Shown here: positions 48,124-64,000 of the stretch, one piece after another
Layout: each line of letters opens with the position of its first letter
Position numbering within the stretch: position 1 is the stretch's first letter
IMG/VR virus record: IMGVR_UViG_3300006749_000011
Location: 21,818-85,817 of that record
Reading direction: 5' to 3' (one strand)
Length of the DNA stretch: 64,000 bases
Source of the DNA: a virus
Position numbers and translations under genes: made by a program
The notes under the pieces: model-generated
Told to the model about the DNA's origin: nothing
Databases searched by the model: none
What the model saw: the letters and a program-made list of their open reading frames with translations, nothing else

Positions 48124-48542
48124 TGAATAAACAAGAACTAAAGAAAATTTTGAAACCATTAATAAAAGAGTGCATTAAAGAAGTTATATTCGAAGATGGC
48201 ACTCTTTCATCAATTATAAGCGAAGTTGTTAAAGGTGTTGGAGAACCTATTATTGAAACTAAACAAAGGTTCCCAAAAAAACAACAACCTCAATACGAAA
48301 CAAATGAACAAGCAAAAACAAGATTGAAAAAACAAAGAAATAAAATGATGGAAGCAATCGGTAAAGATGCTTACAACGGTGTTAATCTTTTTGAGGGAAC
48401 AACACCGGCACCCGCTCCGCAAGAAAATGGTCGAGGTGCTTTATCTGATGTTGACCCAAGCGACCCAGGAGTTGACATCTCTTCATTTATGGGCAAGTCT
48501 TCATTAATATGGGAAAAAATGGCAGGTAAAAATGGCAAATAA
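48123..48542 (+). CDS. Hypothetical head-module protein
   Basis: TAATG-coupled to protease; N-terminus MNKQELKKILKPLIKECIKEVIFE resembles the leader family. Confidence 0.7.
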   Translation: MNKQELKKILKPLIKECIKEVIFEDGTLSSIISEVVKGVGEPIIETKQRFPKKQQPQYETNEQAKTRLKKQRNKMMEAIGKDAYNGVNLFEGTTPAPAPQENGRGALSDVDPSDPGVDISSFMGKSSLIWEKMAGKNGK

Positions 48543-48738
48543 TTACACTTATAGAGTGAGAAAGAAAGACAATATAGACAGAGTTGTTAAGCGTTTTATC
48601 AAAAAATGTAAAAAACTTGGAATTATTGACGAAATAAAAGATCGTCAACATTATACAAAACCCTCTGAAAAGCGGAGAAGAGCAAAGGAAAGGGCAATTC
48701 GACGTAGGATAAAAGAAGAGAGAAAACGTAGAAAATAA
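48532..48738 (+). CDS. rpsU: Phage-encoded ribosomal protein bS21
   Basis: VRKKDNIDRVVKRFIKKCKKLGIIDEIKDRQHYTKPSEKRRRAKERAIRR matches the bS21 pattern. Confidence 0.9.
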   Translation: MANNYTYRVRKKDNIDRVVKRFIKKCKKLGIIDEIKDRQHYTKPSEKRRRAKERAIRRRIKEERKRRK

Positions 48739-48765: not shown

Positions 48766-49125
48766 ATGGCAAATAATATATATGGAGTTGGTTTACACAA
48801 TGTTGGTTCATACCAAGTTGCTGGTAAACCTTATTTATCCGCTTCTCTTATTGAAGAAGAAGAGAAGGAGTTTGAGTTCCCTACTGTTACAAAAAAAATT
48901 ACATTAGAGAATACAGGCTCTAATGCTGCTTATTTTTATTTTGTTAGTTCGCCTAGCTTAAAAGCTAAGTTTGAATTACCAGCAGCAAAAAAAGTAGAAT
49001 TAGATGTAAAGTGTGCATCTATATATGTATCAGGCTCAACGCAAACCGGTGTTCAAATGTTTTGTGAATTAACTAATATTCCAAGTATAAGGATGTATTC
49101 TTTAACTGGATTGGATGGTGTATAA
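48766..49125 (+). CDS. Small virion protein, paralogue 1 of 3
   Basis: GLHNVGSYQVAGKP N-terminus; late motif at 48740..48746. Confidence 0.7.
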   Translation: MANNIYGVGLHNVGSYQVAGKPYLSASLIEEEEKEFEFPTVTKKITLENTGSNAAYFYFVSSPSLKAKFELPAAKKVELDVKCASIYVSGSTQTGVQMFCELTNIPSIRMYSLTGLDGV

Positions 49126-49490
49126 TGGCGAGTAATATTTATAGTGTTGGAATTAATAATGTAGGCTCTTATCAAGTTTCTGGTAGACCTTTTTGTGCTA
49201 CTGGTTCTTTGTTAGAGGGAACAGAGAGTATTGATTTTCCAATGATAACAAAAGAAATTTTAGTTTTAAACTTATCAGGCTCTAATGATTTAGATGTGTA
49301 TTTTCACACAGGTAGTATGGACTCAAATAAGTATACAATCTCTGGTGGAGAACAGTACACGTTTTCTGTTAAGTGTAAGGAAGTTTTTCTAAGTGCTTCA
49401 TCTGGTACCGACTATTCTTTATATGCATCATTAACTCAAATAACCTCTAGTCATATGTTTCACATGACAGGTAGCGGTGTTACGGAGTAA
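49125..49490 (+). CDS. Small virion protein, paralogue 2 of 3
   Basis: GINNVGSYQVSGRP...MTGSGVTE. Confidence 0.7.
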   Translation: MASNIYSVGINNVGSYQVSGRPFCATGSLLEGTESIDFPMITKEILVLNLSGSNDLDVYFHTGSMDSNKYTISGGEQYTFSVKCKEVFLSASSGTDYSLYASLTQITSSHMFHMTGSGVTE

Positions 49491-49492
49491 TA

Positions 49493-50593
49493 ATGAGTGA
49501 TAAATTTAGATATACAGCAGGATTAAACAATGTAGGGTCTTACCAAGTTTCTGGTAAAACCTTCATAACTGCATCTACTGTTAATGACGGTGAAGAAGAC
49601 CAGATTGAATTTCCTGATGTGACGAATAACATCAAGGTTAAATTAGACTCTGCTGGTGGTGTTATAAAGAAAACATATGCTATTAATGGACAATTTCAAT
49701 TAAGAGATAACAGTCTCACTTCACCTAATAATTATCAAAATATAACCTTTGTTATGTGGTTAAAAGTTAATAAGATTGCACCCAATGCAGAATATATGAC
49801 AACAACTCCAATTAGATTACTTTTTAAACCAAATAACAACAGAATTACTCTCAGATGTAAAGATGCTGATGATGCTTTTCCAAATGTCTCCTTTCAAGAT
49901 ATTGATGTTAGTAACGTTCATCATTATGTTCTAACACTAGATCATGACGTAGAAGCAAAGCTTTATGTAGATGGAGTGCTCAAAGCGACAATAGATTTAT
50001 CATCTGTCAATAGTGTAACAACTGCTGCCTCTGTCTTTTCATTAGGTTCTGCTGGTAATGATACTGGATTAGAAATAACTGAAGCTGCAATTTTTGATAC
50101 TACTTTTAACCCAACACAAGTTCAGGAAGCATATAATTCAGGAAATTATTTTGATTTAACAAACCACTCTCAAAACGCTTCTTTATCTCACTATTGGTTA
50201 TTTGGAGATAGTGATGGTGATACTTTTGACAATAACCCTAGTGGCCTAGGTACAAATATACAAGCTACTGTTGTTGATACAATAGGTAGTGATGACCTCA
50301 TTGCTTTGTCCCAAGACGGTGATGATGAGATTGCTGAAGGAACACACACATTTGGCGGTGGTGGAGGAGAATTAAGAATCCATTACAGGTCAAAAGACTA
50401 CAACAATGTAATATCACAAAAACATTATTGGACACTTGACTCTCAATATGAGTCAATAAAAATGAATGTAAAATCAAAAGAATTATATCTTTCAGCAGAT
50501 GGAGGAAATTGTGATTATTCAATATCTGCGGAACTAACAAACATACCAACTTCAAGTATGTTTCAACATACAGGATCAGGGGTTGATGAATAA
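49493..50593 (+). CDS. Paralogue 3 of 3 with inserted LamG-like domain
   Basis: GLNNVGSYQVSGKT...HTGSGVDE; internal TFVMWLK...HHYVLT...KLYVDG. Confidence 0.7.
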   Translation: MSDKFRYTAGLNNVGSYQVSGKTFITASTVNDGEEDQIEFPDVTNNIKVKLDSAGGVIKKTYAINGQFQLRDNSLTSPNNYQNITFVMWLKVNKIAPNAEYMTTTPIRLLFKPNNNRITLRCKDADDAFPNVSFQDIDVSNVHHYVLTLDHDVEAKLYVDGVLKATIDLSSVNSVTTAASVFSLGSAGNDTGLEITEAAIFDTTFNPTQVQEAYNSGNYFDLTNHSQNASLSHYWLFGDSDGDTFDNNPSGLGTNIQATVVDTIGSDDLIALSQDGDDEIAEGTHTFGGGGGELRIHYRSKDYNNVISQKHYWTLDSQYESIKMNVKSKELYLSADGGNCDYSISAELTNIPTSSMFQHTGSGVDE

Positions 50594-59914: not shown

Positions 59915-60955
59915 ATGTCATCTATGTTGGAACAAGCAATTGTTGATGCAAAGGCTCTAAAAGAAGCTGCATTAAAAAATGCCGAACAGGCAGTAATTGA
60001 TAAATATTCATCTGAGATCAAAGCTGCTGTTGAGTCGTTATTGGAAAATGATGATTCTGGTAAAGAAGTTCTTGAAGAAGAAGTAAGAGCCCCATTAGCC
60101 GCAGGACCAGAAGAGAATGAACAGCAAGATGTTGATGTTGTTTTAGATTATGAATTCAATCCTGATGACTTTGACATTACTTTAAGTGCAGCAAAGACAA
60201 AAGAGGATAAGGAACAAGATGCACAAAATGCATCAATAGAGGAGCCTGCTGTACCTCCTGCGCCTGCGGGAGAAGAAACTGGTGGTGATGCACTGGGTGG
60301 CCTTGAAGGCCTCTTAGAAGAGGGAATAGAAGAAGAAGACGATGATGATTTATTAAGTGAAATTCTTGCGCTTCTTGATGAGGAAGAAGATGAAAAGATT
60401 TTAGATGAATCTCTTGTTGTTGATGTTGATGAAGTTAAGCATGGTCATGTTGTAACAGACAATGGAGCAAGAAAATATGATGCCGAGTTAGCAATGGCAA
60501 AACAAGAATCTTCAGCATATAAAGAAGAAGCTGAAGAGTTAGAAAAACAGGTTGGAGAATTGAATAATTCCATCCTCATGTATCAGAACAAGCAAGACAA
60601 ATTAAGAACTGTTCTTGATGACATGAAAGGTAAGTTAGAAGAAATGGTTATACAAAATGCTAGATTAATTTATAGCAATAAAGTTTTACGCGATGCCTCC
60701 TTGAATGAGCGACAAAAATCAAAAATTGTTGAAGCCATCGCTAAGGCAGAGACTTTGAAAGAAGCAAAAACTCTTTATCAAACTCTTAAAGAAACTACAG
60801 TGGGAACACCTAAACAGCGTGGACCAAAATCACTTAGTGAGTCGGTACAGAGAAAGCAAGTTCTTTCCGCACATCTGCCGCGTCGCAAGCAAGAAAATAT
60901 AGTTCAGGAGCAATCTTTTGCTTCGAGAATGAAAAAACTTGCTGGCATAGACTAA
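59915..60955 (+). CDS. Prohead core/scaffolding protein (gp22-like)
   Basis: Highly acidic coiled coil with many LxE sites; directly upstream of the MCP. Confidence 0.8.
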   Translation: MSSMLEQAIVDAKALKEAALKNAEQAVIDKYSSEIKAAVESLLENDDSGKEVLEEEVRAPLAAGPEENEQQDVDVVLDYEFNPDDFDITLSAAKTKEDKEQDAQNASIEEPAVPPAPAGEETGGDALGGLEGLLEEGIEEEDDDDLLSEILALLDEEEDEKILDESLVVDVDEVKHGHVVTDNGARKYDAELAMAKQESSAYKEEAEELEKQVGELNNSILMYQNKQDKLRTVLDDMKGKLEEMVIQNARLIYSNKVLRDASLNERQKSKIVEAIAKAETLKEAKTLYQTLKETTVGTPKQRGPKSLSESVQRKQVLSAHLPRRKQENIVQEQSFASRMKKLAGID

Positions 60956-60978
60956 TTTTATATAAAGGAGAAAATGAT

Positions 60979-62901
60979 ATGTCTATAATTCAAAAATTAT
61001 CAGAAGGCATCGTAAATCGTGATTTGAAAAAGGAAGGTCAAGCTCTACTCACTAAGTGGGAAGCTACCGGACTTCTTGAGGGTATTGATACCCAACAAGG
61101 CAAGCACAATATGGCGCGTCTTCTAGAAAATCAAGCGAAGGAACTTCTTCGCGAATCTAACGCAATGTCAAACGGACAGGTTGAAGGTTTTGCAACTGTT
61201 GCATTCCCAATCGTTCGTCGCGTTTTTGCAGGTTTGATTGCTAACGATTTGGTATCGGTTCAACCGATGTCTCTTCCTAGTGGTCTTATCTTCTTCCTTG
61301 ACTTTGTTTACTCACCAAGAATTGGTGATAACAACGTTACTGATGCTGGTAGTGCTCAAAATGGTCGTATGGGTAACCGTGCTTCAAAATCAATTTATGG
61401 TACAAACCAAGTCGGTTCAGAAGTAATCAATGGTGTTGATCTTGTCAACAATACCAACAAATCCGGATTTAGTGGTCCTGGTCGTGATGGTATGGTTGGT
61501 TATGGCTATGCTAACGCAACAGCTTCTAGTGATCAGGTTAGTGCTGGTGCAGCTAATATGAAAGTACAAACTTTCTTGTTGGATGGTGCCGTATCTGAAA
61601 CTCGTAAAAAATTAATTAAGTACGATCCTGATCTTTTGGCTCAAACAGACAGCTCGAGAGGTGTTATTGTTTTAGATATTGCTAAAAGTGCAATTACTTC
61701 TTCTCTCGGACCAGCTGATTTTGATAACTTAGCTGCTTTTGAGCTACAAGGCCTTATAGCAGATGGAACTAACGCCAATAATCTTCTTGCAACGTTAGCC
61801 GCTAACAGCTCTGGAATCACTTCTGGTTCTGCTACATCAACCGGTTTGATTGCAGATCACAGTATTGCTCAAGTTAGACGCTTGTCAAGTGTTGTTAAGG
61901 ATGCTGCTGATTCTTATACTTTAACAGCTGGGTCTGGTGACTCTGTTCGTTTTGTAATCTCTGCTGGTAGTTCTGTTGTTACAGCTGCTTCGGCTGCTGC
62001 TCATGGTTCTGATGACTTGGAAGCTGCTGCTATTATCTTCCCAGTTAGAGATCAGTTTGGTGTAAACTCTGGTGCTACTTTAGGTGTTATTGATGACTTC
62101 AACTTCCCATTTGAAGGAAACGGCGACATGCCAGAAATCGACATCAAAGTTGATTCAATCGCGATCACAGCTCAAACCAAAAAGCTTAAAGCTAAGTGGA
62201 CACCTGAGTTGGGACAAGACTTGAATGCTTATCACAACCTTGATGCCGAGGTAGAACTTACATCGATTCTTTCTGAGCAAATTGCTTTGGAAATTGACCG
62301 TGAGTTACTTGCTGATCTTGTAAATGGTGCAACTGCTGCAACATATTACTGGTCTCGTGCTCCTGGGCTTTTTGTAAATCGCCAAACTGGTGCTGAGCTT
62401 GGTGCTTCTTCTGCTGCTCCTGACTTTACAGGAACTGTTTCAGAATGGTATGAAACTCTTATTGAAACCATTAATGACGTTTCTGCACAAATCCACTTGA
62501 AGACACTTCGTGGTGGAGCTAACTATGTAGTTTGTTCTCCTGAAGTTGCTAATATTTTAGAATTTACTTCTGGATATCGTGCAAACGTTACGGCTGATGC
62601 TGACAAGGGAACCATTGGTGCCGTTAAGGTTGGTTCTCTTTCTCGTAAGTTTGACATCATCGTTGATCCTTACTTCCCAAGAAATGCTATTCTTGTTGGA
62701 CGTAAAGGCGGTTCTTTCTTAGAATCAGGATACGTTTATGCTCCTTACGTTCCACTACAAACAACACCTACAATCTTCGGTGTTGAGGACTTTGTGCCAC
62801 GTAAAGGCGTAATGACTCGATACGGTAAGAAGATGGTTCGTCCTGATATGTACGGTCTTGTAATTGTTCGTGGTCTTACAGGTGAAGAAGGTTCTTCCTA
62901 A
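60979..62901 (+). CDS. Major capsid protein (T4 gp23-like)
   Basis: LLENQ, FPIVRRVF, VSVQPMSLPSG, KKLKAKWTPELGQDLNAYHNLDAEVEL...EIDRE, GYVYAPYVPL, PRKGVMTRYG. Confidence 0.97.
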   Translation: MSIIQKLSEGIVNRDLKKEGQALLTKWEATGLLEGIDTQQGKHNMARLLENQAKELLRESNAMSNGQVEGFATVAFPIVRRVFAGLIANDLVSVQPMSLPSGLIFFLDFVYSPRIGDNNVTDAGSAQNGRMGNRASKSIYGTNQVGSEVINGVDLVNNTNKSGFSGPGRDGMVGYGYANATASSDQVSAGAANMKVQTFLLDGAVSETRKKLIKYDPDLLAQTDSSRGVIVLDIAKSAITSSLGPADFDNLAAFELQGLIADGTNANNLLATLAANSSGITSGSATSTGLIADHSIAQVRRLSSVVKDAADSYTLTAGSGDSVRFVISAGSSVVTAASAAAHGSDDLEAAAIIFPVRDQFGVNSGATLGVIDDFNFPFEGNGDMPEIDIKVDSIAITAQTKKLKAKWTPELGQDLNAYHNLDAEVELTSILSEQIALEIDRELLADLVNGATAATYYWSRAPGLFVNRQTGAELGASSAAPDFTGTVSEWYETLIETINDVSAQIHLKTLRGGANYVVCSPEVANILEFTSGYRANVTADADKGTIGAVKVGSLSRKFDIIVDPYFPRNAILVGRKGGSFLESGYVYAPYVPLQTTPTIFGVEDFVPRKGVMTRYGKKMVRPDMYGLVIVRGLTGEEGSS

Positions 62902-62931
62902 TCTTTGATTAGTTGAATTTATTCATCATGA

Positions 62932-62960
62932 GAGCCCCTTGGATTTTCCTTGGGGCTTTT
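62932..62960 (+). terminator. Intrinsic terminator after MCP
   Basis: GAGCCCC...GGGGCTTTT. Confidence 0.8.
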
Positions 62961-62973
62961 CTATTTTTGAAAA

Positions 62974-62980
62974 CTATTTA
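62974..62980 (+). promoter_or_regulatory. Putative late-promoter motif CTATTTA (representative copy)
   Basis: Also at 28846, 29391, 34290, 40364, 45792, 48740, 56981, 58754, 59872 and 63958, each upstream of a + strand gene start. Confidence 0.7.
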
Positions 62981-62992
62981 TTACGACTTGAA

Positions 62993-63064
62993 TTCTGGTC
63001 TCCTTTGAGCGAGGCCCCTGCTCACTGTCTCTACCGGAATGGGGCTGGTAGAAACTGACCAGAA
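62993..63064 (+). ncRNA. Candidate structured cis-regulatory RNA (three-way junction with kissing loops)
   Basis: P1 TTCTGGTC/GACCAGAA, P2 TGAGC/GCTCA, P3 TCTACCGG/CTGGTAGA, loop-loop CCCC/GGGG; GC-rich island in a 5' UTR. Confidence 0.55.
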
Positions 63065-63098
63065 AACAGGTCCATAATTTTAATAAGGAGAATATATT

Positions 63099-63677
63099 AT
63101 GGGAAATAGAAGAATTGGTCGTAAAAGACTTAAGGCTCTCTCGTCAAGAGGTGTCACTGATACAATTACAGCAGGAGCAAGCTCTGCAACTGTAACACGT
63201 CAAACAACTATGAGAATTGGTAACAAAATCATTACTGAAATTAGTGTTGATTTGGCTTCTAACACTAATGCTAGCAACACCAGCGCCGATACAATAATTG
63301 GTAAATCTGGTGCTACTGAGAATTGCTTTATTGCAGAAATCTCTCAGTCTATTCATGGACTTATAACTTATGCTGAACTGGCTTGTTTAGAAGTTCCAGG
63401 TACTGGAGTAGTTGACATTAATGTAGTACTCGGCTCCGCTAGTGATGACAATCAAGCTGCGGCTGTGTCTGGTACTGTAACTCTTATTGATAGTAATGCT
63501 GATCTCACTAAGGGATCTCGTGTTGGTGCAGCAGTAACTGAAGTAGATTATGACTCTGAAACTAAAAAGTATCTCTATCTTACTAGTGGTAAGTCTGGAA
63601 CTACTGGTACATACACGACTGGTAAGTTGCTCATCACTCTAGAAGGTATTGCAACAGATGCAGTACCAGATGCATAA
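63099..63677 (+). CDS. Probable head decoration protein with Arg-rich N-terminus
   Basis: AAGGAG RBS; MGNRRIGRKRLKAL then a beta-rich body; follows MCP. Confidence 0.6.
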   Translation: MGNRRIGRKRLKALSSRGVTDTITAGASSATVTRQTTMRIGNKIITEISVDLASNTNASNTSADTIIGKSGATENCFIAEISQSIHGLITYAELACLEVPGTGVVDINVVLGSASDDNQAAAVSGTVTLIDSNADLTKGSRVGAAVTEVDYDSETKKYLYLTSGKSGTTGTYTTGKLLITLEGIATDAVPDA

Positions 63678-63691
63678 TAAGGAGAATTATC

Positions 63692-63865
63692 ATGAGTTTT
63701 AGTAATTATATTATATCACAAGCAGGTAAAAAAGCAGAAGAAGCTAAACGCAAAGCAGAGGCGGAAGCCGAAGCAAAGCGTAAAGCCGCTGAAGCTAAGA
63801 AAAAAGCTGCTGCAAAGAAAAAAGCCGAAGCTGCAAAGAAAAAAGCGGCTTCTTCAAAGGAGTAG
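63692..63865 (+). CDS. 57-aa Lys/Ala-rich basic protein (not in the ORF track)
   Basis: AAGGAG RBS; MSFSNYIISQAGKKAEEAKRKAEAEAEAKRKAAEAKKKAAAKKKAEAAKKKAASSKE. Confidence 0.75.
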   Translation: MSFSNYIISQAGKKAEEAKRKAEAEAEAKRKAAEAKKKAAAKKKAEAAKKKAASSKE

Positions 63866-63913
63866 ACTAGTTACCTTGTATAGTTAACGCACATGTGTTA
63901 GTCCTCCGCTCTT

Positions 63914-63949
63914 GCCCCTTGCTCTCCAATTGCTTGGGGCTTTTCTTTT
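63914..63949 (+). terminator. Intrinsic terminator
   Basis: GCCCC...GGGGC then TTTTCTTTT. Confidence 0.7.
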
Positions 63950-63985
63950 GTCTAAAACTATTTAAAGGGAACGGAGGCTCTATGT

Positions 63986-64000
63986 ATGTCATTACCCACT
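63986..64000 (+). CDS. Start of next gene (MSLPT..., 3'-partial)
   Basis: CTATTTA late motif, GGAGG RBS, ATG. Confidence 0.5.

Follow-up and report, generated by a model that had tools for sequence, protein, structure and literature searches.

The gene that follows the major capsid protein (MCP) gene in about 100 uncultured marine T4-like phages is preceded by a 5' leader belonging to a conserved, uncatalogued RNA family. The leader folds into a three-way junction with a kissing-loop pseudoknot, its fold and sequence are conserved among relatives, its genomic position is fixed, and it carries a pyrimidine tract complementary to the Shine-Dalgarno (SD) sequence of the gene behind it. We infer that the leader alternates between two states and that translation is the step controlled: it would act as a two-state translational tuner, in which closure of the basal stem P1 competes with pairing of the anti-SD tract to the SD. 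The probability of this reading is put at roughly one in two. The leader probably sets the yield of the downstream capsid-surface protein.

The leader behind the capsid gene

The window analysed, 64 kb in length, is the final part of an 85.8-kb IMG/VR viral contig with an estimated completeness of 47%. The features of the locus, in window positions, are the following.

60979..62901, + strand: MCP gene, gp23 type, 640 aa (Pfam PF07068 Gp23, 5.8e-72; PHROG 138)
62933..62968 (hairpin 62933-62957), + strand: terminator-like hairpin AGCCCC...GGGGCU with a U-rich tract, 3' of the MCP stop codon (read from the sequence)
62972..62980 (CTATTTA 62974-62980), + strand: late-promoter-like motif AACTATTTA (from its enrichment and its spacing to genes)
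28843, 29388, 40361, 48094, 48737, 59869 and 63955, + strand: further copies of AACTATTTA, among others (exact matches)
62985..63072, + strand: core folded domain with P1a, P1b, P2 and P3 (minimum-free-energy fold, family alignments, covariance model)
62985-90/63067-72, + strand: P1a, outer stem GACUUG/CAGGUC, added here to the stems described previously (minimum-free-energy fold)
62993-63000/63057-63064, + strand: P1b, UUCUGGUC/GACCAGAA, the P1 of the preliminary description (sequence, minimum-free-energy fold)
62999..63005, + strand: anti-SD UCUCCUU, made up of the last 2 nt of the P1b 5' strand and the junction strand J1/2 (complement of 63085-91)
63006-63010/63020-63024, + strand: P2, UGAGC/GCUCA (sequence, minimum-free-energy fold)
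63030-63037/63045-63052 (63030-35/63047-52 in the core domain), + strand: P3 (sequence, minimum-free-energy fold)
63013..63046, + strand: L2-L3 kissing-loop helix, GGCCCC 63013-18 with GGGGCU 63041-46 (complementarity, family covariation)
63073..63101, + strand: weak start-codon helix, CAUAAU 63073-78 with AUUAUG 63096-101, SD AAGGAGA 63085-91 in its loop (minimum-free-energy fold)
63099..63677, + strand: gene of a 192-aa protein with the Arg-rich N-terminal arm MGNRRIGRKRL and a modelled jelly-roll body (open reading frame, AlphaFold2)

A preliminary description, made from the sequence alone, had placed a GC-rich untranslated region behind a terminator of the MCP gene and a CTATTTA motif, and both elements are present. 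The terminator-like hairpin is not listed by a consensus terminator scan because its loop exceeds 8 nt; relatives carry a GC-rich hairpin with a U-tract at the equivalent post-MCP position, with differing sequences. Exact matches to AACTATTTA number 10 in the window, every one on the + strand, where 2.3 would be expected (0 of 100 shuffles); most of them precede an SD-led start codon by 15 to 35 nt. The motif is a candidate for a late promoter, from which transcripts would likely start a few nucleotides downstream. T4-type late promoters consist of a short AT-rich −10-type motif a few nucleotides upstream of the late transcripts, without a −35 element; the sequences differ, the candidate being AACTATTTA here and the T4 motif TATAAATA. 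CTAnTTA is located 24 to 27 nt 5' of the sequence CUCCU in 86 leaders, and the leader element begins 4 to 6 nt past it. From the motif to the ATG at 63099 the GC-rich leader of the window spans 118 nt (62981-63098); other late-type leaders in the window comprise just 15 to 35 nt, so that the post-MCP leader is an exception.

Several further observations were made in the window. The Gp23 profile matches two separate stretches of the 640-aa MCP, an N-terminal part and residues 379-625, which points to the insertion of a large domain (roughly 250 residues). Directly 3' of the gene at 63099 lies a 57-aa Lys/Ala-rich open reading frame (AKKKAAAKKKAEAAKKK; 63692-63865, + strand), followed by a second terminator-like hairpin (63915-63950) and another AACTATTTA at the window end. 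Three consecutive open reading frames (119, 121 and 366 aa; 48766-50593, + strand) have a common N-terminal N(N/I)VGSYQV.G(K/R) motif, and the third of them contains a ConA-like Laminin_G_3 domain. ARAGORN detected no tRNA or tmRNA in the window.

The minimum-free-energy fold of the leader (−38.3 kcal/mol, z = −2.76, 3 of 200 shuffles as good) reproduces the three-way junction, and the stems P1, P2 and P3 can be read from the sequence at the positions proposed earlier. The complementarity of the two loops noted there (CCCC 63015-18 with GGGG 63041-44) can be extended to 6 bp, and TCTCCTT at 62999-63005 is, as claimed, the exact complement of AAGGAGA at 63085-63091. The innermost two pairs of P3 (63036-37/63045-46) compete with the kissing helix. 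The covariance model R1 scores the core domain at 71 bits (E 4e-16), and its retention, with compensatory changes, in about 100 relatives places the structure far beyond chance. The weak start-codon helix is treated as doubtful: its native duplex energy differs from that of swapped partners by a small bias (−5.34 versus −4.95), compensatory changes were found in neither type A nor type B of the leaders (see below), and it is not retained in type C. A leader peptide is unlikely, as the 12-codon reading frame opened by an ATG at 63038 lacks an SD and this ATG is missing from type B. A transcription attenuator is likewise unlikely, as between the fold and the SD there is no GC-rich hairpin directly adjoining a U-tract.

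Conservation and covariation among relatives

Relatives were collected from IMG/VR by three routes, a search with the downstream protein, a DNA pattern of the core and a pattern of the start-codon region independent of the fold. Pooled over these routes, 98 loci carry the element, with 96 distinct sequences. On reading, about half of the DNA-pattern matches proved to be due to chance in GC-rich contigs, and these were removed; one of them (L088, a 131-kb record) has no match to the model. The CUCCU core and L2 formed part of the DNA search pattern, so that their invariance is circular in that subset, and only the protein-anchored and start-anchored sets are unbiased. In these sets the leader stands before every gene with a true N-terminus and enough upstream DNA, with the exception of two tandem second copies.

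The element is always located between a gp23-type MCP gene and the next gene. The MCP gene is the invariable upstream neighbour, with homologs of 52 to 100% identity (tblastn) in all related loci having upstream DNA. R1 finds exactly one copy in the contig of the window, one copy each in three complete or near-complete genomes of 185 to 195 kb, and one match per locus in the 98 loci, across 736 kb. An Rfam search, proposed with the preliminary description, matched no family: cmscan against Rfam 15 of window positions 60000-64000, with E up to 10, gave nothing inside 62981-63101, and on eight related loci, with E up to 1, it gave a single chance-level match located elsewhere. A blastn search of 50,697 phage records with a type B leader gave no match, and literature searches found no described post-capsid RNA motif. 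By MCP, the nearest cultured relatives are Flavobacterium phage immuto (44% identity) and Microcystis phage Mel-JY01, neither of which has the element; their post-MCP leaders are short and AU-rich, and the genes downstream differ. Six RNA runs contained 7 to 10% of the sampled words. Contigs from four of these runs cover only the conserved 3' part of the MCP gene of relatives and a low-complexity Lys/Ala stretch; none extends over the leader, and they are uninformative on its expression.

In a model-based alignment of the 96 distinct sequences, 95.6% of the cells pair, compared to 83.5% after shuffling and 28 to 46% with slid partners, and compensatory changes occur in 16 of the 22 pairs. The kissing-loop three-way junction in a late-gene 5' leader, as originally proposed from a single sequence, is thus genuine, by its fold as well as by covariation across the homologous post-MCP leaders. 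G-U outnumbers A-C by 309 to 34 across the family, which means that the fold is selected as + strand RNA and not as DNA. The kissing loops of 86 leaders exist in three versions (GGCCAC/GUGGCU, GGCCCC/GGGGCU and GGCGGC/GCCGCU), which are always complementary, and 100% of the cells of the kissing helix pair.

Three types of leader can be distinguished. Type A (n = 22), to which the leader of the window belongs, has the kissing loops GGCCCC/GGGGCU and a long P1 with a freely variable inner half; 8 of its 14 P1 pairs show compensatory changes and 98.5% of the cells pair. Type B (n = 64) has the kissing loops GGCCAC/GUGGCU or GGCGGC/GCCGCU. Compensatory changes were found in 7 of its 8 P3 pairs, and its kissing helix of 7 bp is paired in 100% of the cells, two pairs showing changes on both sides. 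P1b of type B (UAUUC/GAAUA) was omitted from the model because just 86% of its cells pair. Type C comprises 8 sequences. Divergent leaders have the P2 variants GGUC/GACC, GGGAC/GUCCC and GGGUC/GACCC, a rewritten P1a (CCUAAGAAAU/AUUUCUUGG) and three versions of an extra hairpin. Within type B the junction strands J2/3 (AGAAAG) and J3/1 (UCAUUGA) are conserved, whereas both differ completely among types A, B and C. An extra perfect palindrome, absent from type A, lies directly 3' of P1 in type B (e.g. L017:1465-1480), in the forms GUUAUUGCAAUAAC, GUUAUCGAUAAC or GGUUACGUAACC (variants in L091, L169 and L189). The palindrome shares its first bases with the P1a 3' strand, which puts the extra hairpin and P1a in competition.

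The anti-Shine-Dalgarno tract, the downstream protein and the function of the leader

Conservation of the anti-SD was borne out independently of the DNA pattern, since every leader retrieved by way of the protein has the CUCCU core. Every leader has an anti-SD:SD complement of 7 to 8 bp, with a mean duplex energy of −10.4 kcal/mol. Because the bases 62999-63000 of the anti-SD lie inside P1, the two pairings overlap by two bases and are mutually exclusive. In a nested model without tertiary terms and without a null distribution, the closed P1 and the anti-SD:SD pairing are almost equal in energy (ddG +1.1 in type A, −0.7 in type B), the difference staying within 3 kcal/mol in 61 of 83 leaders.

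Compensation between the tract and the SD differs among the types. For types A and B the native anti-SD:SD duplex is no better than a swapped one (−10.37 versus −10.42; 1430 of 2000 permutations as good), and changes in the anti-SD flank are uncompensated, UCCUCCUU facing AAGGAGAAA and CUCCUC facing A or U. The SD is fixed by the ribosome, so that its conservation cannot separate pairing from another role of J1/2. In type C (L175, L192, L201, L236, L237, L239 and L241), CUCCU is replaced by UUUUCUUC, C-to-U changes by which pairing to GGAGG is preserved through G-U wobble. In five of the seven complete type C leaders the start codon is preceded by a lineage-specific CCUUGA(A)GGAGG that is complementary over 12 bp to J1/2 and the P2 5' strand; this pairing would also unzip P2. 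The type C tract forms a duplex of −13.3 with its own SD region, compared to −5.9 to −9.2 with those of other types. Covariation thus appears to support the anti-SD:SD pairing in one subgroup, type C, and the evidence for selection on this pairing, as judged from the alignments, is mixed.

In the two-state model, 62981-63098 would be the 5' leader of a late transcript for the post-MCP gene, folding into a three-way junction of P1a with P1b, P2 and P3, with the loops of P2 and P3 joined by a kissing helix of 6 to 7 bp. With P1 closed, the ribosome site would be free. With P1 open, the tract would pair with the SD about 80 nt away; the kissing-loop domain would then be enclosed by a long-range helix and the ribosome site masked. 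Transcription reaches P1 before the SD, and the open-site state would therefore form first. The balance of the states, or the folding kinetics, would determine the amount of the post-capsid protein relative to MCP. A riboswitch-like or autoregulatory translational switch, or a small structured non-coding RNA, had been suggested for the region; of this suggestion the structured late-gene leader with an anti-SD is supported. A free small RNA is unlikely in view of the lack of a terminator between the fold and the open reading frame and of the position of the ATG, which is fixed at 97 to 118 nt past CUCCU.

The protein encoded at 63099 begins with the Arg-rich MGNRRIGRKR noted in the preliminary description, and this N-terminus is conserved together with the leader. 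No Pfam or PHROG family was matched by the 192-aa protein. Its AlphaFold2 model (pLDDT 88, pTM 0.84) is a jelly-roll with a separate N-terminal arm, residues 1-27 being placed outside the jelly-roll with lower confidence. Foldseek against the PDB gave nothing at E <= 0.001, and the matches in BFVD are all uncharacterised. The top three structural matches among 48,161 PDB representatives (VIA-align) are trimeric phage capsid cement proteins, 7eel_H (Pam1, Z 8.1), 8h89_J (GP4, Z 8.1) and 7dou_4 (KHP40, Z 7.8). Like these, the modelled protein is a jelly-roll of similar size (113 to 140 residues aligned, rmsd 3.4 to 3.9) and its gene adjoins the capsid gene; sequence identity, however, is only 6 to 14%, and the Arg-rich arm lies outside the alignment. 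A Z of about 8 is borderline and within the range common among beta-sandwiches, so that the assignment is likely but not proven; judged from the model, the protein is probably a capsid cement or decoration protein.

Proteins behind the leader (149 to 309 aa) belong to one large family of 65 members and at least 7 others without blastp similarity after residue 50. All of them start with MG[NSKR]RR.[GS]..R[LI], and these first approximately 12 residues and the leader RNA are all that the families have in common. By sequence comparison, the post-capsid slot, in loci including L051, L052, L058, L084, L090, L091, L098, L103, L122 and L131, is a mosaic cassette with a constant left flank and at least 8 blastp-unrelated families. 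In two loci (L040:1282- and L047:1501-) the post-capsid gene is duplicated in tandem: the second paralog has no leader of its own, and just an SD separates it from the first.

Other readings of the leader were weighed against the two-state model. A phage protein may operate the leader as a translational operator, by binding the kissing-loop domain or J1/2 and shifting the RNA to the hidden-SD state; the binding partner could be the product's own Arg-rich arm, which would give autogenous, assembly-coupled feedback, or another phage RNA-binding protein. This is unlikely overall, and still the pattern of conservation speaks for it. The sequences of L2, L3, P2 and J1/2 are conserved beyond what pairing needs, whereas P3 and P1b vary freely, and only three kissing versions occur in about 100 leaders. 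All genes behind the leader share their start despite at least 8 unrelated families, and residues 1-27 are modelled as an arm separate from the jelly-roll. However, the arm is also present on the leaderless tandem paralogs (the second copies in L040 and L047), a capsid-binding role would explain its conservation without RNA, and arm variants are not tied to RNA subtypes, the range of arms being the same in types A and B.

It is rather unlikely that the fold merely stabilises the mRNA at its 5' end, guarding the late transcript against 5'-end-dependent decay, or defines a processing site in read-through MCP transcripts, with no direct role in initiation. A location 4 to 6 nt past the promoter-like motif would put the fold at the extreme 5' end of the RNA, P1 closes the domain, and types A and B lack co-variation of anti-SD and SD, all of which would fit such a role. 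A simple 5' hairpin would suffice for it, however, and it leaves unexplained the invariant pyrimidine tract matching the SD, the co-variation in type C and the restriction of the element to one late gene.

Leader and Arg-rich arm could together form one portable module, a proposal to be regarded as improbable. The unassembled protein, of whichever family, would use the shared arm to bind the kissing-loop domain and push the RNA towards the hidden-SD state, so that synthesis of the capsid-surface protein would be held back until the arms are taken up by expanded capsids. Translation in a tailed phage would in this way be under autogenous control coupled to assembly, like the feedback by ribosomal proteins. 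As an extra layer, a phage bS21 might change the competition of the ribosome with the anti-SD. A bS21 homolog is encoded in the window (48532-48738, + strand; Pfam Ribosomal_S21, 2.3e-14), between prohead protease/scaffold genes and a late-promoter motif, and bS21 was found in 4 of 4 leader-carrying genomes checked, which are related and hence not independent. Since the site of action of bS21 is the anti-SD end of 16S rRNA, it may matter for a leader that masks the SD.

A small-molecule riboswitch, in which a tuning-fork junction like that of the purine riboswitch binds a metabolite and gates the anti-SD, is very unlikely. The three-way junction with its L2-L3 contact and a conserved J1/2 beside an anti-SD resembling an expression platform would be in keeping with it, as would the conserved J2/3 and J3/1 within type B. 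These junction strands, however, differ among the subtypes, which leaves no common ligand pocket; no Rfam riboswitch model was matched at E up to 10, and the regulated gene encodes a virion protein with no metabolic link. Hardly credible, finally, is a feature acting at the DNA level without RNA function, whether as a palindrome bound by a protein or as a conserved linker at which recombination exchanges the variable post-capsid gene: the mosaic slot with its at least 8 unrelated families between conserved flanks and the perfect palindrome TTATTGCAATAA of type B might be taken for it, but the strand-asymmetric wobble indicates selection on the + strand transcript, and compensatory changes in four helices and a loop-loop helix are unexpected for a DNA site.

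Comparison with known systems

The element is a large uncatalogued structured-RNA family with a kissing-loop pseudoknot proven by covariation, and its hosts are abundant, uncultured marine T4-like phages of 185 to 195 kb. It marks one late gene handled unlike all others in these phages, behind which unrelated surface proteins are swapped with leader and N-terminal arm constant. As a compact kissing-loop junction of about 90 nt it would also make an attractive target for structural work.

The aptamer of the purine riboswitch (RF00167) is a three-way junction of approximately 70 to 90 nt, in which the paired loops of P2 and P3 hold the arms parallel. The present leader is similar in architecture only, being a three-way junction with a P2-P3 loop-loop contact in a 5' leader upstream of the SD. 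It differs in that it does not match the family model and its junction strands are unconserved across subtypes, in that the loop-loop contact is a Watson-Crick helix of 6 to 7 bp, and in the position of the anti-SD, which lies on the 5' side in J1/2 and not in a 3' expression platform. In the operator of T4 gene 32, a small H-type pseudoknot serves as the nucleation site for a single-strand-binding protein, which binds cooperatively. This operator and the present leader are both pseudoknotted 5' mRNA ends in T4-type phages followed by an AU-rich unstructured stretch up to the ribosome site; here, however, a kissing-loop junction with an anti-SD takes the place of the H-type pseudoknot, and the product is a jelly-roll protein, as modelled, with no match to a nucleic-acid-binding family.

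Among known systems, the leader in front of the maturation (A) protein gene in MS2 and other Levivirus comes closest. In that leader an upstream complementary sequence, which adjoins a 5' helix on its 3' side, can base-pair with the distant SD; the resulting helix encloses several hairpin arms, and an alternative local pairing keeps the site open (PMC4615214). In the proposed model the arrangement of upstream tract, 5' helix, enclosed arms and SD would be alike in both, and, as in MS2, a low-copy virion protein would be controlled relative to the coat protein. P1, which is made before the SD, could play the role of the kinetic trap that delays the inhibitory fold in MS2. There is no sequence relationship between the two, and the present leader belongs to the transcript of a DNA phage whereas that of MS2 belongs to a replicating genome. 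Covariation of the long-range pair is documented in MS2 and is seen here in type C only, and the enclosed arms are locked by a kissing loop here but not in MS2. A leader RNA able to mask its own ribosome site is thus of a kind already known; the present family is homologous to no catalogued one and pairs such masking with a kissing-loop junction. If the two-state model is true, DNA phages would use long-range masking of the ribosome site in the manner of MS2 to set the stoichiometry of their virions.
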